Positions 44,059 to 61,225 of a stretch of 64,000 nucleotides of DNA are shown piece after piece. A program made the position numbers and the translations under genes. The DNA is from an uncultured Patescibacteria group bacterium. Lineage in GTDB: Bacteria; Patescibacteriota; Minisyncoccia; Phycocordibacterales; UBA918. Each line of letters opens with the position of its first letter. Position 1 is the stretch's first letter. The stretch covers positions 7,839-71,838 of the forward strand of contig CAKUWT010000001.1 of assembly GCA_934699595.1 (NCBI GenBank), given 5' to 3'. The notes beneath the pieces are model-generated. The model saw only the letters and a list, made by a program, of their open reading frames with translations. It ran no database searches and had not been told where the DNA came from.

Positions 44059-44071
44059 TCAAGAGGTTGCT
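44059..44071. repeat. 13-nt direct repeat of the tRNA-Asn 3' end (GCTCCGCGGGCAG); left island boundary (attL-like)
   Basis: exact match to 51311-51323, followed by degenerate tRNA-like sequence (ATTCGA.CTGC). Confidence 0.7.
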
Positions 44072-44243
44072 CCGCGGGCAGATATTTACCCAGATTCGAC
44101 TGCCATCTAAAGATCCTGAAGGCCGTCATAATCAAAAGTCTCAATTATTAGAAACAGAGATATAAAGGAATGCTTGAGCTATGTTAGATTTTCAATACTG
44201 ATTTGTCTTGTAAAGCATTGTCAAGTATAATAACATTAAGCCT

Positions 44244-44426
44244 ATGAAAAACGAGGAGGAATTCTACACCGCCGAGGAGTTGGCTCAAAAACTCAAGGTC
44301 AATATTATGACTATCTACCGCTATATTAAAGCTGGCAAGATAAAGGCGTATAAATTTGGTAAAGAGTACAGGGTTGAGCTGAAGGATTTCGACGCATTTC
44401 TCAAAAAGCACCAATCAAACAAGTAA
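44244..44426 (+). CDS. excisionase-family helix-turn-helix DNA-binding protein (60 aa), possible controller/Xis
   Basis: YTAEELAQKLKVNIMTIYRYIKAGKIKAYKFGKEYRV matches the excisionase/MerR-type HTH; stop 1 nt before the next gene. Confidence 0.7.
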   Translation: MKNEEEFYTAEELAQKLKVNIMTIYRYIKAGKIKAYKFGKEYRVELKDFDAFLKKHQSNK

Positions 44427-44427
44427 T

Positions 44428-47400
44428 ATGAAATTATCAAAAATAATAGATAACAATAGGAAAACCTTACTCGACACTTTTGTCGATGTAAGTGAAAAGC
44501 ATAAAGAACTCTCTATAGCTACTGGCTACTGGGATCTCGAAGGAATGAGAATGCTTCTTCCTCAATTAAGAAACTACGAAAAAATAAGACTCCTAATTGG
44601 TCGAGAACCTCTAATTCCTCGACACCAACTTGAGCAACCTGAACCAGATTATCCTGATCAAGACTTTAAATTTGATTTAACTCATATCAAACCAGAATCT
44701 GAACTCAAGGATCTTGTAACAGAGATCAAACAATGGATTGAATCTGGCAAACTAGAGGTCCGTGTTTACCGCAAAAACTTCTTGCACGCCAAATGTTTTA
44801 TCTTCGGATCATATGATTCTGATGAAGCTATTGGAATTATTGGATCTTCAAACCTTACAAAGAATGGTCTGACTCATAATACCGAACTCAATGCTTTAGA
44901 ATCAGATCATCGTGTAGTTGTTTTTGAGCCTAAGAATAAAGAACAAGAAGTTGGCCACTTGTACTGGTTCGATAGTTTTTGGAATGACGAAGGAACTGAG
45001 AAGTGGGACGAGCAATTTGGATCAATTCTTGAATCATCACCTGTTGGCGATAAGCTTTTCAGTCCATATGAGACGTACATAAAAACTCTTTACGAGTTAT
45101 ACAAAGAAGAGATCATTGATGATGAGCTAGTGGTTAATGAAAGCGATAACGGCAGAACTCTTTTTGATTTCCAACACAAGAATACTCAAGCCCTACTACG
45201 AAGACTGAGAAAGTATAAAGTAGCGATGCTTTCGGACTCTGTTGGTCTTGGCAAAACTCTGACTGCTATCAATGTGATCAAGCAGTATTTAGAAGACGAA
45301 GAAGGTAAAAAACGAGTTGAGATTATCTGTCCTAAATCTTTGGTCCAACAATGGGAAAAGGAAATGGCTACTGAGGGTATTTATAATCACACTCCTATCA
45401 CTCTTCAGAACCCTAACGAAATTGAGAAAAAGCGAGAGCTTGATGCAATTGCAAGTGTTACTTTGTTTGTGATCGATGAATCTCACAACCTTCGACAAAC
45501 CAATGGAAAGCGTTTCAAGCAAGTACTTGACTGGGTACGAGAAAATCCAAAAGCTCACGTCCTATTACTTACCGCTACTCCGATCAATAATCAGTTAAGT
45601 GATCTCACTAACCAGATTCTACTTGGAACTGGTGGTGATGCTGACGGTCTAAGATTGACTGTTGCTGATGAGAATAATCAGACTGAACAAAGAAACTTTT
45701 ATCAGATCGTTGAAAACCTCAGAAAGAAGATTAATCAGGACCTTAAGCGAGATGGAAAAATAGACTATAACCACATTAAACAAGTGATGACTCCGATCAT
45801 CAGAACATTTGTGGTCCGACGTACTCGACAAGGAATTGAACAAGAATATGGGTATTTGATGATCAATGGAGAAAAGAAAGTTTTTCCTATAGTAGTGCCT
45901 GAGGTTCTGGAATACGTACTTGATAACAAGCTTGTTAAGGAGCTTCGATCAGTTACCTCTGAATCGATTCCGCTTGATGAAATATACGAGCTTGATCCTG
46001 AGCAAGTAGTTGAGAAATGTAAGGATCTTAAGCACCCACTAGATCAAATTTCTAATGTATCTAAGAAGTTAGATAAAGAAAAATTGGATGGCGAAAATCC
46101 AATGTATTTCGTATTTCAACTTATATTAATGCTTGGGTTCATTCCATACCGATGGATGATGTATAAGGCTGATTATTATGGGAAGACACGAGATGAAATC
46201 AAAGAATTAAAAATTAGTTCAGATAAAAGCAAGAAGCTACTGCTCCAGCTTGGTATTTTTGGAATCCTGCGGACTGTATTCCTAAAGCGTATGGAATCTT
46301 CAGTAAGTGCCTTAGCTTCTTCTCTTGAAACGTATTCACGCAAATTAGATCTCTTTGAACAAGGAATTAATGAAGGGAGGATTGTATCAATGGATGATCT
46401 TGATGCTCTTGAATCAAGTCTTGGAGATGAAGATGTTGAAGTTGATGAAAAAGCTCTTGAAGAACATACCCTTGATGAGGTTGATGATAAAAGATACGAG
46501 CTAGAGTCACTTAAGAAAGATATTCAACGAGAAAAGCAATTAGTGTCTTTAATTACCGCTCAACTTGAAATTCTAAATAAAGACGACTCCAAGATTAAGT
46601 GTTTTGCGGATCAGCTCAATACTTTGCAAAAGCGGGATCCAAATCAAAAGGTACTTGTGTTCTCGTACTTTGCAGATACCATTAAATATCTCGAAGAGAA
46701 TATTGGTAAATATTGTGATTTTCTTACCGAAGAAAACACTGGTTTTGTTTCCTCAAAAAACAAAGGAGACTCTGAAAATATGGCTTCTCGTTTCTCTCCT
46801 AAATCTAAAAAATATCAACTCAAAGATGGAGAAACTGAACTTCAGTATCTATTTTCAACTGATGTATTGTCTGAGGGCCAAAACCTTCAAGATTCAGGTG
46901 TTCTAGTCAATTACGATCTGCACTGGAATCCTGTGCGTATGATTCAAAGAAATGGTCGTGTAAACCGTCTTGGATCTGAATTTGAAGAGGTATATATCTA
47001 CAATATGAAGCCAGAGCAAAAGCTCGATACCTATCTTGAATTGGTAAAAAGACTTGAAGGAAAGATCAATTTGATCAGAAATACTGTCGGTACTGATACA
47101 CCAGTGCTTGATGAACCAGAAAACCCTATTGAGTACACTGACTCAGTAACAGATATTTATAGCTCTGATGTTGAAACCAGATTGAAGGCTCTACAAGACG
47201 CTGAAAAAGCTTCAGACTTCTTGCTTTCAGAAGATGAGTTTGTGGTTGATTTGAAAAAGTTTAACTCAAACGAAAGCTATCCAAAGGAATATAAAGAGAA
47301 GATCTATCAGATGTCAGATGGTAAATGGGCTGTATGTCCAAAACAAGAAGCTAGAGGCCAAGAACGGCCTGAGGTCTTCGGTCTCGCACGACTCTATTCA

Positions 47401-47913
47401 GAAGCAGAATCAGATCCTATTGGTTATCAGTTCGCAAAAATAGATCGCACGGGTGCACAAATTCAAGCAGTCTCTCAACTGCAAGCTCTTGAGTGGCTGA
47501 GAACTACACCAGAGGATAATGATCGAGTAATGGATAAAATCACTGCTGATAAAGTGGCTGTAAAAGATCAATTGGAATCTAAAGTCATTCAATACTTTGG
47601 GCAAGAAGAAACTGGATCACTCATTGGGCAAGAAAATAATATCCTTAGACTGCTTTACGAAAATGGCTACGCTCAAGAAGAGATTGATTTGGTCCGAGAC
47701 GTCTTTAAGACGACAAACATATTCTACAAACGTGAAGTAGATAAGTTGAAGCGGAATGTAATGCGACAGAAAAATAAAGGTGAAATGTATCAGGATGATC
47801 TGCGAGAGCTTGTAAAACTAGCTAAGGAAATTGATAAGAATACGAACGATGAAGAATCATTAACACCTGAGAAAGTTGAAAGTGTATTGTTTTATGTAAA
47901 TCGAAATGAGTAA
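44428..47913 (+). CDS. PLD-family (HKD) nuclease domain fused to SNF2-family helicase (putative restriction/defense subunit)
   Basis: HKD motif HAKCFIFGS...IGSSNLT near the N-terminus; SNF2 motifs SDSVGLGKT (I), VIDESHNLR (II), QRNGRVNRLGS (VI). Confidence 0.85.
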   Translation: MKLSKIIDNNRKTLLDTFVDVSEKHKELSIATGYWDLEGMRMLLPQLRNYEKIRLLIGREPLIPRHQLEQPEPDYPDQDFKFDLTHIKPESELKDLVTEIKQWIESGKLEVRVYRKNFLHAKCFIFGSYDSDEAIGIIGSSNLTKNGLTHNTELNALESDHRVVVFEPKNKEQEVGHLYWFDSFWNDEGTEKWDEQFGSILESSPVGDKLFSPYETYIKTLYELYKEEIIDDELVVNESDNGRTLFDFQHKNTQALLRRLRKYKVAMLSDSVGLGKTLTAINVIKQYLEDEEGKKRVEIICPKSLVQQWEKEMATEGIYNHTPITLQNPNEIEKKRELDAIASVTLFVIDESHNLRQTNGKRFKQVLDWVRENPKAHVLLLTATPINNQLSDLTNQILLGTGGDADGLRLTVADENNQTEQRNFYQIVENLRKKINQDLKRDGKIDYNHIKQVMTPIIRTFVVRRTRQGIEQEYGYLMINGEKKVFPIVVPEVLEYVLDNKLVKELRSVTSESIPLDEIYELDPEQVVEKCKDLKHPLDQISNVSKKLDKEKLDGENPMYFVFQLILMLGFIPYRWMMYKADYYGKTRDEIKELKISSDKSKKLLLQLGIFGILRTVFLKRMESSVSALASSLETYSRKLDLFEQGINEGRIVSMDDLDALESSLGDEDVEVDEKALEEHTLDEVDDKRYELESLKKDIQREKQLVSLITAQLEILNKDDSKIKCFADQLNTLQKRDPNQKVLVFSYFADTIKYLEENIGKYCDFLTEENTGFVSSKNKGDSENMASRFSPKSKKYQLKDGETELQYLFSTDVLSEGQNLQDSGVLVNYDLHWNPVRMIQRNGRVNRLGSEFEEVYIYNMKPEQKLDTYLELVKRLEGKINLIRNTVGTDTPVLDEPENPIEYTDSVTDIYSSDVETRLKALQDAEKASDFLLSEDEFVVDLKKFNSNESYPKEYKEKIYQMSDGKWAVCPKQEARGQERPEVFGLARLYSEAESDPIGYQFAKIDRTGAQIQAVSQLQALEWLRTTPEDNDRVMDKITADKVAVKDQLESKVIQYFGQEETGSLIGQENNILRLLYENGYAQEEIDLVRDVFKTTNIFYKREVDKLKRNVMRQKNKGEMYQDDLRELVKLAKEIDKNTNDEESLTPEKVESVLFYVNRNE

Positions 47914-50875
47914 TCAAGTATTAGACAAAATTAAAGATATTCAAAAAGAACTCAATGAGCTTGAGGTTAAAAAAGACCTGCCTCAATCACAACGAGTAAT
48001 TGCTTCAATTGTCAGACTTCTTGATGATTCTGTTTCTGTTGATGATCAATCCCTCTTTCAGCTTTTTACTGACAGTGACGGAAAGATCAGAGCTAATGCC
48101 TCTTGGTTCTACGAAGACTCAGTAATGACTGACAGAAAAGCGACATATAAAGTACACCCTCAAAACAACCTTAACCTTGATATTAAGCTCTACGGTATTA
48201 CCAAGCCTTCAAAGCGAACGATTGCTTGGGCTCAGTCACTAACACCAAACTTTGAAGACGAACCTTTCAACAAGAACTTCAATGTTGGAATTGATTTTAT
48301 TGTTCCAAAGAGTGCTGATCGGATCATTGTGGTCCTAAGTAATAACTGGGTTATCCGAACGCTTGAACTTAAGGGCAAGCTTACTGTTACGTTTCAAGAG
48401 ATCCTTGCACGTTGGGCTGAAATAAAAAACTTCGATAACAAAACTGAGCTTCACAATATCCTTTGGGAAAGTTTTGATATTCAGCCTCTCAACAAGAAGT
48501 TTTACTCTGGTATCAGTGAACGCTTTACTCTTCTTCGTCAATATCTTGTTAAGGAAAAGGTGTTTGATGAAAAGCACGCTTCTTTGTTTGCAAACCGACT
48601 TCTTGGTCGAGTTATCTTCTGTTGGTTCTTGGACAAAAAAGGGATCATCAATCCTGACCAGAAGTACTTCGATTCTAAATCTTTTGATAATGACAGTGAA
48701 TACTACAAAACCAAACTAGAAAGACTTTTCTTTGAGGTGTTAAATACACCTATTGAAGATCGAGAATTTAAAGATGATGTAACACCATTTCTAAACGGCG
48801 GTCTTTTTGAAGCACGAAAAAATGATCTTTACAAAAATTCGAAGCTTTCATTCCCGAAGAATTATTTTGACGATCTGTTTGAGTTTCTTTCTGGATACAA
48901 CTTCACAACTGATGAGAGCACGAGTCAGTTCCAGCAAGTAGCGATTGACCCCGAGATGCTTGGTCGTATCTTTGAAAACCTTCTTGCTGAAATGACAGAA
49001 GAGACTGGAGAGCAGGCCCGAAAAGCAAAAGGTGCTTTCTATACACCTCGAGAAATCGTAGACTATATGTGCAAGGAATCGCTCAAGGAATATCTTAAAA
49101 CTAAGATTGAGAAAGATGAGCAGTTGGACCAACGTTTGTATCAGCTTATAGATGCCCCTGATAAAGACTTTCAAGACCAAGACCATAATTGGCGAAGGGA
49201 CTGGAAACCTTACAAATCTGATATTTTGAAGGCTCTTGATGAGCTGAAAGTTCTTGATCCAGCTTGTGGATCTGGGGCGTTTCCAATAGGTATGCTTCAG
49301 CTTCTGGTGCGCGTATATGAGCGTTTAGAGGCTCGTTTTGACTCGTATAAGACGAAATTGGGCATTATAGAGAAGAATATCTATGGTGTAGATATAGAGC
49401 CGATGGCGGTTGAAATAGCACGGCTTCGAGCGTGGCTTTCAATTATCGTTGACGAAGAATCAGATTCTAAAAAGATTAAACCACTTCCAAACCTTGAGTT
49501 TAAATTCATTTGTGCTAACTCGCTTATAGATCTCGATAGGAATAGTAATAATACTTTTGGTGACGATCCAGAACTGCAAGAGAAGCTTGCGTCTATTCGA
49601 GATGCTTATTTCAATACCGAAAGCTTGAACAAGAAAAAGAAACTACGAACTGATTATGAAAAACTGGTAACTCAAGGAGAAGGGTTGTTTGGTGAATCTA
49701 AGAAATCAAAACAATTGAAGACTTATAGACCGTTTGATAATGAGGCTCAAGCTGATTTCTTTGATCCTAAATTTATGTTTGGAGTTGGAGCATTTGATGT
49801 GGTTATTGGAAATCCTCCTTATTATGTCATCAAAAAAACGCATCCCCACCTACGGTATTTTGAAGATAATTATTTTCTTACTAAAGGCGGAAAGAAGAAT
49901 TTGTATAGGCTGTTTTTTGAAAAAGGTTTTAGTTTACTAAAGAAAAGTGGAGTTTTAACGTTTATAACCCCCGACAACTATCTGACAAGTAAAGATAGCA
50001 AGTTACTAAGAAAGAAGATCATTGAAGATCTAAAAATACGCTCGATCATCCATTTCACGGAAAAAGACAGTGTGTTCGAAAGTGCCACTCAAGCGGTTGC
50101 TGTGGTTATCCTTCAAAATGACAGTTTAGATAATTATACCTTCAACTTTAAACAATACGGTGAAGAGTACACATTAGAAAGCCTTTTAATTAAACAAAGG
50201 AAAGGATTTTACATTAAGCCACTACCTGAAATTATTGAAAAAATAGAGTCATTTCCACATCAACTTTCTACTTATGTTGAGGGTTTCCAAGGAGAAATAA
50301 ATGTCTCTACAAAAAAACATTTATTTTCTATAAATAACAACCGAGACTTTTTACCGCTTCTAAGAGGAATGCACATAGGAAGATTCTCTTTAAAAGAAGA
50401 ACCTAAAGAGTATTGCCCTATAGGTGCTCAAAAAAGAGATCACTATAAAGTAGATCGTGTTGTTATTCAGGAAGTTTCAAATTCAGGCTTGAAGCAAAGA
50501 CTAAATGCAGTATTGCTTAATAATTATTTGTGTGGACACACAACTAATTATTTATTTAGTAAGTCTAAGGATTTTGATAATTATTCAATTCTCGGTTTAA
50601 TTAATTCATCATTACTGAACTATTATTTCAAGTTTTACAACCAAACCAACCACGTTCCTATTGGTGAGATAAAACAAATACCTATCCCGAACCTAAAAGG
50701 TAAAAAGAATATTATAAATTCAATTAGCAGAATAGCTAAAGAATTAACCGAAGAACATAGACACAATAATTACGGTGATTTATCCTCAAAAGAGGCTGAA
50801 TTGAACAAGTTGGTCTATAGCTTATATGATCTTACAGAGGAAGAGATTAAAGTTATCGAAGTATCAACATTATGA
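47906..50875 (+). CDS. Eco57I/gamma-class N6-adenine DNA methyltransferase with N-terminal and C-terminal accessory (target-recognition) domains
   Basis: FYTPREIVDYM, LDPACGSGAF (motif I), VVIGNPPY (motif IV); 8-nt overlap with the upstream gene. Confidence 0.9.
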   Translation: MSNQVLDKIKDIQKELNELEVKKDLPQSQRVIASIVRLLDDSVSVDDQSLFQLFTDSDGKIRANASWFYEDSVMTDRKATYKVHPQNNLNLDIKLYGITKPSKRTIAWAQSLTPNFEDEPFNKNFNVGIDFIVPKSADRIIVVLSNNWVIRTLELKGKLTVTFQEILARWAEIKNFDNKTELHNILWESFDIQPLNKKFYSGISERFTLLRQYLVKEKVFDEKHASLFANRLLGRVIFCWFLDKKGIINPDQKYFDSKSFDNDSEYYKTKLERLFFEVLNTPIEDREFKDDVTPFLNGGLFEARKNDLYKNSKLSFPKNYFDDLFEFLSGYNFTTDESTSQFQQVAIDPEMLGRIFENLLAEMTEETGEQARKAKGAFYTPREIVDYMCKESLKEYLKTKIEKDEQLDQRLYQLIDAPDKDFQDQDHNWRRDWKPYKSDILKALDELKVLDPACGSGAFPIGMLQLLVRVYERLEARFDSYKTKLGIIEKNIYGVDIEPMAVEIARLRAWLSIIVDEESDSKKIKPLPNLEFKFICANSLIDLDRNSNNTFGDDPELQEKLASIRDAYFNTESLNKKKKLRTDYEKLVTQGEGLFGESKKSKQLKTYRPFDNEAQADFFDPKFMFGVGAFDVVIGNPPYYVIKKTHPHLRYFEDNYFLTKGGKKNLYRLFFEKGFSLLKKSGVLTFITPDNYLTSKDSKLLRKKIIEDLKIRSIIHFTEKDSVFESATQAVAVVILQNDSLDNYTFNFKQYGEEYTLESLLIKQRKGFYIKPLPEIIEKIESFPHQLSTYVEGFQGEINVSTKKHLFSINNNRDFLPLLRGMHIGRFSLKEEPKEYCPIGAQKRDHYKVDRVVIQEVSNSGLKQRLNAVLLNNYLCGHTTNYLFSKSKDFDNYSILGLINSSLLNYYFKFYNQTNHVPIGEIKQIPIPNLKGKKNIINSISRIAKELTEEHRHNNYGDLSSKEAELNKLVYSLYDLTEEEIKVIEVSTL

Positions 50876-51309
50876 AATCAATAATCTTTGCCAGAGTTTC
50901 AGATAAAAAACAGGACTCAAACGAGGCTCAAGTGTCTCGTATTTCTGAATACATCAGAGCCAAAGATCTTCAGGTTTGGAAAACATATGAGCTTGAAGAG
51001 TCTTCAACTCGTGGCGAATTACTAAAGATGACTATGACAGAAAGTTGAAAGAGCTTAAGTCAAAACAGCACGATCTCAATATACAAATTGAGGACCATAC
51101 TAAGGCAGACGAAAACTACTATATTACTGCTTCTACAGTGTTAAATTTGGCTAAGAGCGCACTGACGCTATTTGAAAGTTCCGAAGTGCACGAAAAAAGA
51201 GCTATGCTCAATTATCTACTTCAGAACTGCGTCGTAAATGGAAAAAAGCTAGAGTTTTCAATACGATCTCCGTTTAACCATATACTAGAATTGCACAATC
51301 AACCTACTA
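50872..51309 (+). pseudogene. serine recombinase remnant (N-terminal catalytic fragment plus frameshifted C-terminal fragment)
   Basis: MKSIIFARVSDKKQDSNEAQ (catalytic Ser motif) stops after 58 aa; the C-terminal-like fragment 51045.. in another frame runs into the tRNA. Confidence 0.55.
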
Positions 51310-51383
51310 GGCTCCGCGGGCAGGATTCGAACCTGCGACCAATCGGTTAACAGCCGACTGCTCTACCGCTGAGCTACCGCGGA
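51310..51383 (-). tRNA. tRNA-Asn (anticodon GTT)
   Basis: manual fold: 7-bp acceptor TCCGCGG/CCGCGGA, D-arm GCTC/GAGC, anticodon loop CTGTTAA, T-arm GCAGG-TTCGAAT-CCTGC. Confidence 0.8.
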
Positions 51384-58507: not shown

Positions 58508-61225
58508 ATGAAAGAAAGTCCTAGTTTAAAATTCAATTCCCCTGAAGATGAAATCCGTTATTTGCGCGAGCAGATTGCTCAACAGGAAACAGAACTTAAT
58601 AGATCCGAAGCGCTAATCAATACTCCTCAGGAGTCTCTGCCCGCCTTAAAAACTTTAAAGGAATACAGTGCCTTTACCCCCAAAAGTGTTCTTGGTGAGA
58701 ATTACCAGCTTTCTGATACTGAAATAGACGGTCTGATTACTGATGTTATTAAAACGCCAGGAGATGATGTTGAGAATATTTTACAAATCGCTCACGAGAA
58801 GGGAATCAAAAACGCTCTAACAGTAGTAGAGAAAATCGGAAGCCCATTTTTAATTGATGAGGTGCATATGCGTTTAGTGAATCTAATCCGCAGTGGTGTA
58901 ATACCTCCTGGGCTAAAAGAGAATATTCCGCCATGGCAAGCGTTGCATATGACTCTTTTTGAGGTGCTGTTACCGGAGTTGAAAAAAGAGGAGCAGAGTG
59001 ACCAGGCGGATGTAGTTGGGCGTATGCAACAGTGGTTTACTGGCTTGCGCAATCTTGGGGCTAAAAAATCCGGGAATCACTATGCGATAGAGATAGCTGT
59101 GGCTGATAATAGTGAAGATGTAGTATTCTATCTGGCTGTACCAAGAGACCTGATTGATCTGTTTGAAAAACAGACCCATTCTTTATTCCCCAAAGCCGTT
59201 TTGGTGGAGCAACCTAATGACTATAATATTTTTGTAGAGAACGGCAGTTCGATAGTGAGTGAGGCGCAGCTGAGGAGACACGCTCTGTACCCATTGCGAA
59301 AATTTGATGAACTGCAGGCTGATACTATGGCGATTCTACTAAATGCCTTTTCTAAGATTGAAAAAGCCGGTGGAGGAGCAGCGGTGCAATTTTTGATTAG
59401 ACCGGCACAAAAAGCATACTACCAGGATTTTCAAAACATTATTAAGAAGGTAGAGAAAGGTATTAAACCGAGCGAAGCCATTTCTCAGAGCACAGTGCTA
59501 GGTAGTGTGACGTCGGGTCTTAATGATTTATTTTTTACTAAAAAGAATACTTCTGAATCAGAGGAAAAAACCGTTGATCAAAACGCCTTAGATCTATTCA
59601 ATGGAAAAATATCGGAGGAAATTGTAGAGGTTAATCTCCGACTGGTTGTATCCGCACGCGAAGAACGTCGGGCAAAACAAATTATGCAAGAACTAGAAGC
59701 GGTTTTTAATCAGTTTTCTTATTTAGATGGCAATGAGTTTGTTTTTAAGGTCAAGAAAGGTCTGTCTAAAGAGAGGGGAGAAAGAGACTTTTCTTTTCGC
59801 ACTTTTGACGATAAGAAAATATTACCTTTAAACATTACCGAACTAGCTACCGTTGTGCATTTTCCGCACAATGATTTGGTACCACAATTAAAACAATCAT
59901 TTTCAACCGAGGCTCCAGCCCCGACGATGCTGCCGACTGCGGGCACCTTGTTGGGAGTTAATCGCTATCGTGGTACGGAAAAGATGATCTTCTCTACTCC
60001 AGACGATCGGATTCGTCACTTTTATATCATCGGTCAAACTGGAACCGGTAAAACTACCTTAATGAAGAATATGATCGCACAAGATATCCAACAAGGGAAC
60101 GGGGTCTGTTTTATCGATCCCCACGGCACAGATATTGAGGATATCCTGAGTATCGTGCCAGAAGAACGCTTGTCTGATGTGATCTATTTTGATCCAGCCG
60201 AATTGGATCATCCGCTAGGATTAAATATGCTGGAGTTTGATGTGTCTAAACCAGAACAAAAGACTTTTGTCGTCAATGAGATCTTTTCCATTTTTAAAAA
60301 ATTGTACAGCCATAGTCCTGACAGTATGGGGCCGATGTTTGAGCAGTATTTTCGTAACGCCACTATGTTGGTGCTGGAAGACCCTGAGAGTGGTAGTACT
60401 CTGATGGATGTTAGTCGAGTGTTGGCTGATGCGGATTACCGACATTACAAACTATCGAAAGCAACCAACCCTATAGTGAAACAGTTTTGGTTGGAAATTG
60501 CTGGGCAAGCGGGTGGGGAAGCGTCTCTACAAAACGTCGTACCGTACATAGTCTCTAAATTTGATGTCTTCACTGCCAATGATTATTTGCGACCTATTAT
60601 TGGTCAGCAGCGCTCTGCGTTTAATTTTCGTCAGATCATGGATGAACGAAAGATTCTCTTAGTGAATCTTTCCAAGGGACGGTTAGGTGAAATAAACTCC
60701 AATCTGATTGGGATGATTCTGGTTGGTAAAATCTTAATGGCAGCGCTGTCACGGGCAGATAATCCTGGTGCAGACTTTGCTCCATTTTATTTGCACATGG
60801 ATGAGTTTCAGAATATTTCGACCGATTCTATCTCGGCAATTTTGTCGGAGGCACGTAAGTATAAACTAGGTTTGACATTAGCTCATCAGTTCATTGCTCA
60901 ACTTGATGAGGGGATTAAGGAGGCGGTGTTTGGTAACGTCGGCTCCTTGGCTGCTTTTCGGGTTGGGCCAGGCGATGCCGAGTTTTTATCAAGACAGTTT
61001 GAGCCAGTCTTTAATAGCAACAGTTTAATGAATACTCCCAATCGTCAGGCTTCGGTACGCCTTTTGATGGATGGTGTGCCGGCTCGACCGTTCAGTCTCT
61101 CCACCTTACCACCACCGAAGGGGAATTCTGAACAGAATCTTCGTCTGAAAAAGCTTAGTGCCTTGACTTTTGGTCGACCACGAGCGGAGATTGAAGAAGA
61201 GATTAGATTACGATACTTGAAGTGA
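58508..61225 (+). CDS. VirB4/HerA-like (DUF87) P-loop ATPase
   Basis: Walker A IIGQTGTGKTTL about residue 500, Walker B-like FYLHMDEF, large N-terminal domain. Confidence 0.5.
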   Translation: MKESPSLKFNSPEDEIRYLREQIAQQETELNRSEALINTPQESLPALKTLKEYSAFTPKSVLGENYQLSDTEIDGLITDVIKTPGDDVENILQIAHEKGIKNALTVVEKIGSPFLIDEVHMRLVNLIRSGVIPPGLKENIPPWQALHMTLFEVLLPELKKEEQSDQADVVGRMQQWFTGLRNLGAKKSGNHYAIEIAVADNSEDVVFYLAVPRDLIDLFEKQTHSLFPKAVLVEQPNDYNIFVENGSSIVSEAQLRRHALYPLRKFDELQADTMAILLNAFSKIEKAGGGAAVQFLIRPAQKAYYQDFQNIIKKVEKGIKPSEAISQSTVLGSVTSGLNDLFFTKKNTSESEEKTVDQNALDLFNGKISEEIVEVNLRLVVSAREERRAKQIMQELEAVFNQFSYLDGNEFVFKVKKGLSKERGERDFSFRTFDDKKILPLNITELATVVHFPHNDLVPQLKQSFSTEAPAPTMLPTAGTLLGVNRYRGTEKMIFSTPDDRIRHFYIIGQTGTGKTTLMKNMIAQDIQQGNGVCFIDPHGTDIEDILSIVPEERLSDVIYFDPAELDHPLGLNMLEFDVSKPEQKTFVVNEIFSIFKKLYSHSPDSMGPMFEQYFRNATMLVLEDPESGSTLMDVSRVLADADYRHYKLSKATNPIVKQFWLEIAGQAGGEASLQNVVPYIVSKFDVFTANDYLRPIIGQQRSAFNFRQIMDERKILLVNLSKGRLGEINSNLIGMILVGKILMAALSRADNPGADFAPFYLHMDEFQNISTDSISAILSEARKYKLGLTLAHQFIAQLDEGIKEAVFGNVGSLAAFRVGPGDAEFLSRQFEPVFNSNSLMNTPNRQASVRLLMDGVPARPFSLSTLPPPKGNSEQNLRLKKLSALTFGRPRAEIEEEIRLRYLK

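Follow-up and report, generated by a model that had tools for sequence, protein, structure and literature searches.

Among large serine recombinase (LSR) systems, those of Listeria A118/LI, phiC31, Bxb1, SPbeta (SprA), SCCmec (CcrAB/CcrC) and Anabaena (XisF) were taken for comparison with the locus described here. For the Listeria LI integrase, the motif for the zinc-ribbon domain sits 5 bp further inward in attB than in attP (Rutherford 2013, PMC3783163). As of 2020, according to one paper, serine integrases had not been reported to use t(m)RNA genes as targets (PMC7192596). Insertion on the 3' side of a tRNA gene is found in tyrosine-integrase islands (P4-type; Islander/TIGER class). In mycobacteriophage BPs and its relatives, attP lies inside the repressor gene and immunity depends on integration (PMC4557955). 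In this study we analysed a 64,000-nt stretch of a Saccharibacteria genome (contig CAKUWT010000001.1; this whole stretch is called the window below), in which a 7.2-kb island adjoins the gene for tRNA-Asn. With a probability of about 0.85, we consider the island to be a degenerate and immobilised member of a large family of integrative elements of the Patescibacteria (candidate phyla radiation, CPR) that would use an LSR at tRNA-Asn. The original prediction, made from the letters of the window, had read it as an immobilised integrative island delivering a defence system, and this interpretation as a whole was supported.

The family resembles the LSR systems in its protein domains (Resolvase, Recombinase and Zn_ribbon_recom, with a coiled-coil region), in the short identity between its junctions and in an outer motif that lies 5 bp farther out on the element side, as for the LI integrase. 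P0001, an intact family protein of 514 aa, matches XisF, CcrB and CcrC (NCBIfam, under their cut-offs) and the PHROG 95 integrase. However, the family targets a tRNA gene, its attP is embedded in the 3' part of the integrase open reading frame (ORF) with a protein C-terminus that differs between the free and the integrated state, and its elements are small (6-10 kb), non-phage and restricted to CPR. With the tyrosine-integrase islands it shares insertion on the 3' side, a tRNA that stays functional, a recombinase gene that adjoins the tRNA, a native 3' flank displaced to the far end, foreign composition and defence cargo. It differs from them in its serine enzyme, in a crossover placed at the extreme 3' end of the tRNA (positions 70-74), where the islands use the anticodon or T loop, and in a repeat of 5-6 bp. 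As in BPs, attP lies in coding sequence and the 3' end of an element gene changes on integration, whereas the gene spanning attP is here the serine integrase itself and not a repressor; no integrase of this type is known to have such an arrangement. In integration of the BPs type, reportedly described by Broussard and co-workers in 2013, insertion at a tRNA gene by a tyrosine integrase is said to alter the 3' end of the repressor and to give different free and integrated protein isoforms.

The island extends from about position 44067 to 51323 of the window. According to ARAGORN and Rfam, tRNA-Asn(GTT) is the sole tRNA of the window, and it lies exactly where it had been predicted (Table 1). 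The GC content of the island was 36.8% compared with 44.0% in the remainder (z = -9.6, with same-size windows as reference), its tetranucleotide distance had a z of 33, and the twelve 2-kb windows of lowest GC in the 64 kb all fell within it (12/12). These windowed checks bore out the claim that the DNA is AT-richer than its flanks. The 13-mer GCTCCGCGGGCAG, which on the plus strand reads as the last four T-stem bases, the 3' acceptor strand, the discriminator and C74, occurs in two exact copies in 64 kb (44069-44081 and 51311-51323), where 0.03 copies would be expected by chance and two or more were found in 0 of 100 shuffles. Its exact recurrence had been noticed from the letters; the left copy had been placed at 44059-44071, 10 nt off. 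The degenerate tRNA-like sequence reported to follow this copy was found as well, as an 11-nt spacer and then GATTCGA-CTGC. The island itself is a single, tightly packed plus-strand operon with a promoter-like site, a helix-turn-helix (HTH) gene of the HTH_17 family, a gene for a PLD nuclease fused to a SNF2 helicase, a methyltransferase gene and two recombinase fragments.

The genomes nearest to the window are metagenome-assembled genomes (MAGs) of Saccharibacteria and other Patescibacteria, whose Fmt is at most 57% identical (the GTDB scan included) and in which the right flank Grx-HPF-Fmt-Def is syntenic. Flanking proteins identical to those of the window were present on a metagenomic contig of 202.7 kb. 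In one of these loci, L004, the Grx-HPF-Fmt synteny ends at tRNA-Asn and is directly followed by a terminator and unrelated genes, which is an unoccupied site. The native-type trailer GAGC|AA at the left junction of the window agrees with this empty site. Thus, the empty tRNA-Asn site that the original prediction had proposed to look for exists in a distant relative, and none was found from the same species.

Table 1. Features of the island and of its surroundings, with positions in the window
Feature	Position	Strand	Evidence and remarks
ORF directly left of the island, 146 aa	43443-43883	minus	same strand as the tRNA; 52.8% GC vs 44% in the genome
Left junction core (attL-like)	44067-44081		TT (native tRNA trailer side) + GCTCCGCGGGCAG; family left junctions have NN+GCTCC, then the element arm
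Degenerate element-side (P-type) half-site	44082-44104		11-nt spacer, then T-loop-like motif CAGATTCGACTGCC (44091-44104); direct reading
Promoter-like site TTGTCT-17-TATAAT	44203-44231	plus	13 nt 5' of the HTH gene; consensus scan 10/12
HTH_17 / excisionase-family DNA-binding protein, 60 aa	44244-44426	plus	Pfam HTH_17 E 3.4e-14; TIGR01764 E 2e-13; PHROG excisionase families
Cargo gene 1: N-terminal PLD (HKD-type) nuclease + SNF2 helicase fusion, 1161 aa	44428-47913	plus	Pfam PLDc_2, SNF2-rel_dom, Helicase_C
Cargo gene 2: gamma-class N6-adenine DNA methyltransferase, 989 aa	47906-50875	plus	Pfam Eco57I E 1e-36, MmeI_Mtase, MmeI_hel, TaqI_C
Serine recombinase N-terminal remnant (residues 1 to ~48, catalytic ARVS serine)	50872-51017	plus	58-aa ORF continues out of frame to 51048
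Serine recombinase C-terminal remnant (residues 405-513)	51018-51350	plus, other frame	stop codon inside the tRNA
Element-side P' half-site	~51273-51308		within the C-terminal remnant; P' arm alignment
Right junction core (attR-like)	51309-51323		AG+GCTCCGCGGGCAG; right 13-mer copy 51311-51323 is the acceptor/T-stem 3' strand of the tRNA
tRNA-Asn(GTT), integration target	51310-51383	minus	ARAGORN; Rfam RF00005 73.6 bits; intact, convergent with the recombinase remnant
Protein with DUF8128, 905 aa, ~7 kb right of the island	~58508-61225 (L001:16911-19628)		DUF8128 and weak TrwB/DUF87-type ATPase matches (Pfam)

The comparison covered more than 80 related loci, which carry L numbers below, and 80 metagenome loci among them were used for the counts of right ends. 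At L011, tRNA-Asn is followed by an intact large serine recombinase (514-521 aa) with its stop codon inside the tRNA, by two different cargo genes and then by an HTH gene whose product is 63% identical to that of the window. More than 1900 homologues of this recombinase exist. The 120 best of them show at least 67% identity, come nearly all from CPR and contain the Resolvase (PF00239 in P0001), Recombinase and Zn_ribbon_recom domains. The recombinase C-termini share ...SPFNLVLELAxSPNWLRG, followed by an antisense reading that resembles the tRNA T arm (e.g. QDSNLRPI). L011, L098 and about 50 further loci share the layout of the window and have an intact recombinase next to tRNA-Asn. The right end of the recombinase gene met an intact tRNA-Asn in 36 of the 80 loci, a tRNA-Asn with a group I intron in 16, tRNA-Gln in 2 and tRNA-His in 1; it ended in a non-tRNA "attP-type" arm in 15 and ran off the contig in 8. 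ORF clustering gave a consensus map that runs c4 or c8, c7, c2 (~376 aa), c11, HTH, 0-3 cargo genes, recombinase and tRNA-Asn, and in the 49 loci with an HTH_17 homologue this gene was always on the same strand and upstream, 0-6.7 kb from the recombinase. All cargo representatives that could be annotated belong to restriction-modification (R-M) systems, including type III Mod+Res, C5 and D12 methyltransferases with partners, AlwI and Eco57I-type methyltransferases. At least five loci with the same Grx-HPF-Fmt-Def flank bear different cargo; the cargo varies at a constant site. We could not find a match for the presumed nuclease partners c17, c18, c33 and c65, nor for the backbone proteins c2, c4, c8, c7, c11 and c23 in Pfam, PHROGs, NCBIfam and a PDB profile search. 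A scan of IMG/VR for the family recombinase returned no match, which argues weakly against a phage origin. The elements, integrative and 5.6-10 kb in length, make up a large family within the Patescibacteria (CPR), of which our literature search (CPR/Saccharibacteria serine recombinase, tRNA, R-M islands) found no published description.

The attachment sites were read from both ends of the elements. In the aligned right junctions, the P' arm consists of the last codons of the recombinase (...GTACTAGAACTAGCTGATAGTCCTAAC), followed by T[TG]GCTCC and then the tRNA. With the non-tRNA arms as probes, 19 left junctions were found, in which the native tRNA trailer or terminator is followed by two variable bases, GCTCC and the conserved arm CTCTAGTGGACAAGTTCAGAACTGC...; the element sizes obtained from them were 5.6-9.5 kb. 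The sequence common to the left and right junction of one element is GCTCC, with 5 nt in 16/18 and 6 nt in 2/18 elements. At the two bases ahead of it, the left and the right junction disagree in 4 (position 1) and 5 (position 2) of 18 elements, which places the crossover inside GCTCC, corresponding to tRNA positions 70-74. A symmetry analysis of P' against P, meant to fix the central dinucleotide, gave conflicting centres and was discarded. Direct repeats of at least 9 nt of the tRNA end were sought just upstream of the HTH gene in the relatives and none was found, indicating that the left end of intact elements is not the HTH gene and that the family is not characterised by long repeats. Since the family shares only GCTCC, the 13-nt repeat of the window is atypical. 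The original prediction had called it the classic signature of integration into the 3' end of a tRNA; the insertion at the 3' end of tRNA-Asn was upheld, and the long repeat as its mark was not.

The arms of the family obey a constant geometry. The T-loop motif GAAC starts at +21 in 47/47 unique tRNA arms and at +26 in 10/13 attP-type arms, as well as in the P arms of left junctions, and the family P arms bear CAAGTTCAGAACTGC with GAAC at +26. This shift is exactly the 5-bp spacing rule that distinguishes attB from attP in LSR systems. The element arm is thus a mimic of the tRNA 3' end with a 5-bp spacer, which explains the "degenerate tRNA-like sequence" of the original prediction. An intact element consists of a P arm, the backbone (c4 or c8, c7, c2, c11), HTH_17, a slot of 0-3 R-M genes and the LSR, the last codons of which form the P' arm, so that the 3' end of the integrase gene contains attP. 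In the recombination chemistry that we infer, the LSR would recombine attP with the 3' terminus of tRNA-Asn, with the crossover in the invariant GCTCC, at the discriminator and the top of the acceptor stem (positions 70-74). The body of the tRNA would stay unchanged, the nucleotides 3' of the crossover (CCA-proximal bases) would come from the element, and the native trailer and terminator would be displaced to the far (distal) end.

A free form of the family was found in three independent assemblies. L101:1-6784, L102:1-6741 and L103:1-6697 represent one 6,729-bp unit in circularly permuted versions that are 100% identical, with 55 and 12 nt of overlap at the ends. It codes for a 216-aa protein, a c2-like protein, an HTH protein, a 795-aa cargo protein without a Pfam match and a 540-aa recombinase, and it has no tRNA; the ORF of the recombinase crosses attP. 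When an integrated twin of this circle was sought, the best match had only 74% nt identity. Beyond the crossover, the unit and the internal attP sites of tandem arrays encode a conserved tail of ~35 aa, WLPLVDKFRTxNWxxIKSELQFSGIL.... Over 26 unique arms, the codon-position entropy of the tail was 1.25 at the third position compared with 0.67 at the first and 0.62 at the second, and there were zero in-frame stops. Because the variability lies in the third position and stops are lacking, the tail behaves as coding sequence. In the integrated copies it is replaced by 0-13 residues from the antisense strand of tRNA-Asn. The integrase might exist in two forms that depend on the integration state, the swap might act as a switch of activity, stability or directionality, and, together with the targeting of a tRNA 3' end by an LSR, this could define a distinct class of CPR mobile elements that distributes R-M cassettes. 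We regard this proposal as tentative and rather doubtful.

Several further observations were made on the family. Tandem arrays were seen in L025, L029, L049 and L069 (upstream recombinase copies) and in L018, L052 and L026, where the recombinase of a first element has an intact attP-type site behind it and then a second element that ends at tRNA-Asn. In L026, the attP-type site is followed 1.3 kb downstream by a second junction of trailer plus arm. In L032, L035, L043, L048, L056, L065, L070 and others, the contigs begin ~45-145 nt before the left junction and stop ~75-110 nt past the recombinase. Such ends would be expected if assembly breaks off at element boundaries, with occupied, empty or differently loaded sites side by side in the population. 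L097:57-12698 contains the same R-M cargo as the window together with an intact serine recombinase; between its left arm and its HTH gene there are a tyrosine integrase (Phage_integrase, 370 aa), a second HTH_17 protein and a SocA_Panacea protein, and L097 may be a composite or nested element. The backbone protein c2 (~376 aa; L019:1922-3049 and 28 other loci) has a mean column identity of 66% with many invariant residues, and may serve the element in replication or maintenance. Recombinases with only the 3' half of a tRNA behind them were considered as attP forms and this was rejected, as the 5' half lies 220-600 nt downstream and the insert is a group I intron. This intron splits the anticodon loop of tRNA-Asn in L057 (L057:11543-11823; Rfam RF00028, 88.4 bits) and also in L041, L047, L053, L081, L083, L088, L022 and L036. 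ARAGORN misses such intron-split tRNAs, and the longer introns contain ORF-like sequence. Group I introns in such tRNAs of Patescibacteria have already been published (PMC13011429).

In the window, the recombinase is a remnant and not a functional member of the family. The 58-aa ORF with the ARVS motif had been recognised as a serine-recombinase remnant abutting the tRNA. It matched Pfam Resolvase with an E of 2.6e-4, under the gathering score; in the comparison with intact relatives, the N-terminal remnant aligned with residues 1-48 of the L090 recombinase (tblastn E 1.6e-8). Furthermore, positions 50868-51017 correspond to nt 1-150 of the L098 recombinase (L098 10270-10419) with 80.7% nt identity. 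The C-terminal remnant aligned with residues 405-513 of P0001 (blastx, 58.7% identity, E 5e-38). Thus, the frameshifted C-terminal piece running into the tRNA had been correctly described, whereas its reading into the tRNA is the family hallmark, the attachment site being in the 3' end of the recombinase gene, and not an accident of decay. At 51017|51018 there is an internal deletion of 1,027 bp (its flanks match L098 10419 and 11447), by which residues ~49-404 were lost and the frame was shifted; the Recombinase domain, the zinc-ribbon domain and the coiled coil, present in the relatives (PF07508, PF13408), are gone from this copy.

The closest intact relatives with the same cargo are L098, L097 and L086. 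L098 has the order c7-c2-c11-HTH-R-M-recombinase and 74-81% nt identity to the window, but the homology of the window to it starts on the left only at 44207, at the promoter. The left backbone of the intact relatives, 3-4 kb in length, is missing, and we found no backbone remnant anywhere in the window and no second element or intact family recombinase in these 64 kb. The loss of the left backbone implies that the copy in the window is fixed in place, and together with the recombinase deletion it agrees with the immobility that had been predicted. In this genome the recombinase has later lost 1,027 bp with a frameshift and the left backbone has been lost too, and the remainder is a fixed operon of promoter, HTH, PLD-nuclease/SNF2-helicase and N6-adenine methyltransferase genes. 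The reading that mobility was lost while the defence operon was retained, and that the window holds a decayed and domesticated island, is supported.

Some observations weigh against this reading or limit it. The closest empty site, L004, belongs to a distant relative (Fmt 53% identical) and shows no synteny of the left flank; exact-protein look-ups with both flanking genes found no empty site from the same species, and every contig matched bears the island. The 125 nt from 44082 to 44206 match nothing. The left junction of the window shares 13 nt with the tRNA side where the family shares 5-6 nt, and the T-loop-like motif of its left arm lies 6 nt farther out than in the family P arms (~+32). 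The left junction is therefore aberrant and possibly remodelled, and its status as the original attL is not provable. Furthermore, the crossover is bounded only to GCTCC and not down to a dinucleotide, and the 6,729-bp "circle" could formally be a head-to-tail tandem. The aberrant left junction also invites the explanation that the 13-mer is not an att remnant at all: the true left end would have been lost with the backbone deletion, and the repeat would be secondary, by chance or by gene conversion from the tRNA. The extra 8 nt and the displaced motif do look secondary beside family junctions of 5-6 nt, and the backbone deletion needed an end point near the left junction. However, the repeat is confined to its two copies in 64 kb (0/100 shuffles) and coincides with the composition step, and it has the native-type trailer GAGC|AA ahead of it, as in the L004 empty site, and a P-arm-like motif behind it. 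We consider this explanation highly improbable.

Even less credible, in our opinion, is an origin by a tyrosine integrase, since lost, that inserted the DNA in the 3' part of tRNA-Asn and made the 13-bp repeat, with the serine remnant as a passenger. A 13-nt exact repeat of a tRNA 3' end with further tRNA-like sequence is the kind of mark that tyrosine-type integration into tRNA genes leaves, and L097, with the same cargo, has a Phage_integrase gene inside the element. However, no tyrosine integrase (Phage_integrase) or remnant of one was present among the island ORFs, and intact elements and the circle are without one. At least 52 related loci have, beside tRNA-Asn, a serine recombinase whose ORF terminates within the tRNA, and the junction arms follow the 5-bp attP/attB spacing rule of LSRs. 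It might also be asked whether the island could still be mobilised in trans, if a related element residing in that cell provided an intact recombinase and HTH protein. The cores of the two junctions are still there, as is a P'-like arm. Judging by the tandem arrays with their internal attP sites, one site can accommodate several elements, and the frequent contig breaks at element boundaries suggest population polymorphism. Against this stand the aberrant motif spacing of the left arm (+6 nt relative to family P arms), the diverged P' arm, the lack of a second element or intact family recombinase in the 64-kb window and the presence of the island in all sampled contigs of the strain, and mobilisation in trans seems unlikely. 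We therefore return to the view that the island is an immobilised member of the serine recombinase family, with its defence genes retained.

The promoter-like site ahead of the operon is a candidate promoter by its consensus match alone; the motif is kept in L097 (90% over 31 nt). The Pfam and TIGR01764 matches agreed with the excisionase-family HTH gene that had been predicted at the start of the island. Its homologues (59-91% identity) lie on the same strand upstream of the recombinase in 49 loci, cargo-less elements included. Its place in the backbone, together with its translational coupling to the recombinase in elements without cargo, makes the HTH_17 protein a candidate recombination directionality factor or regulator. 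A role as controller of the R-M genes (C protein or MADS Mad1) was considered and is unlikely, as the gene is kept beside the recombinase in cargo-less elements and its Mad1 score of 29.6 is under the cut-off of 80.

The cargo consists of two genes, as the original prediction of a two-gene R-M or defence-like module had it. The PLD+SNF2 protein keeps the Walker A GLGKT and DESH motifs and appears intact; it is 94% identical to the L086 protein and 90% identical to the R protein of L097, and has more than 2181 homologues of a uniform length of ~1160 aa. The methyltransferase, made up of an MmeI-like spacer, an Eco57I-type core and a TaqI_C-type target-recognition domain (TRD, from ~49822), keeps the PACGSG and NPPY motifs and appears intact as well. 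Compared with L086, its residues 1-640 are 91-93% identical, whereas residues 641-989, which form the TRD, are only ~23% identical. At the DNA level the swap covers 49822-50875 of the window and L086:5708-6951, and the DNA upstream is 85% nt-identical. The exchanged TRD is also the stretch of lowest GC in the island (30-34%). The TRD has been replaced relative to the close relatives. TRD exchange between near-identical cassettes is the usual mark of specificity switching in R-M systems. The PADLOC Type IIG profile PDLC03601 matched residues 103-545 of the methyltransferase with an E of 3e-150, and no nuclease domain was detected in its residues 1-100; the nuclease sits on the separate PLD-SNF2 protein. 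In L099, a 1-Mb contig, the same PLD-SNF2/methyltransferase module stands alone among housekeeping genes. The domains, the intact motifs and the TRD swapping between near-identical cassettes indicate that the cargo is most likely an ATP-dependent, R-M-like defence system. The methyltransferase would mark the sites of the host through its exchangeable TRD, and the SNF2 motor with the PLD nuclease would cut unmarked DNA.

Besides PDLC03601, the best profile matches of the cargo were PADLOC "HKD+Snf2" (E 2e-43), DrmD (E 1.5e-42) and PglX (E 4e-40). Type-2 "BREX-related" (BR) systems combine an effector made of an HKD nuclease and a Swi2/Snf2 helicase with a PglX/Eco57I-like N6-methyltransferase as marker (PMC12839542). 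In the same manner, the cargo pairs an N-terminal HKD-Snf2 fusion with a PglX/Eco57I-like N6-methyltransferase. However, it differs from Type-2 BR and BREX systems in having only two genes, without the DUF499 ATPase, DUF3780, PglZ, BrxC and BrxL, and its PglX-like match reached 137.6 bits against a cut-off of 500. With class 1 DISARM the cargo shares a resemblance to DrmD/DrmC/DrmMI, but the island has no DrmA or DrmB (DUF1998) and only three intact genes, and the NCBIfam scores are far under the curated cut-offs (DrmD-like 146 vs 610 bits; DrmC-like 20 vs 133 bits). Unlike Type ISP and Type IIG enzymes, it consists of two proteins and not of a single polypeptide. The cargo thus seems to resemble Type-2 BR and DISARM in logic without being a member of either.

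Two neighbouring genes of the window can be mentioned (Table 1). The 146-aa ORF directly left of the island matched nothing in Pfam or NCBIfam, and the related genome loci have no homologue of it. It may represent either a genuine orphan gene or what is left of foreign DNA acquired earlier. The 905-aa protein on the right side could be a DNA-translocation ATPase.

Taken at the level of sequence, the family exemplifies large serine integrases devoted to a tRNA gene, and the support comes from over 50 independent loci, from the two junctions and from a circular form. It would be a vehicle for the exchange of R-M systems among the ultra-small CPR/Patescibacteria at one fixed hotspot. Mobile elements of CPR are poorly known, and R-M barriers make CPR genomes hard to manipulate. 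The compact att sites (P'-GCTCC-P and the universally conserved 3' end of tRNA-Asn) and the integrases of ~500 aa are candidate genetic tools for Patescibacteria. That the integrase ORF runs across attP raises a testable idea on the control of directionality; if true, the tail swap of the integrase would be analogous to the integration-dependent immunity of mycobacteriophages, acting on the recombinase itself. For the genome of the window, the island is a fixed and domesticated defence locus with decayed mobility genes.

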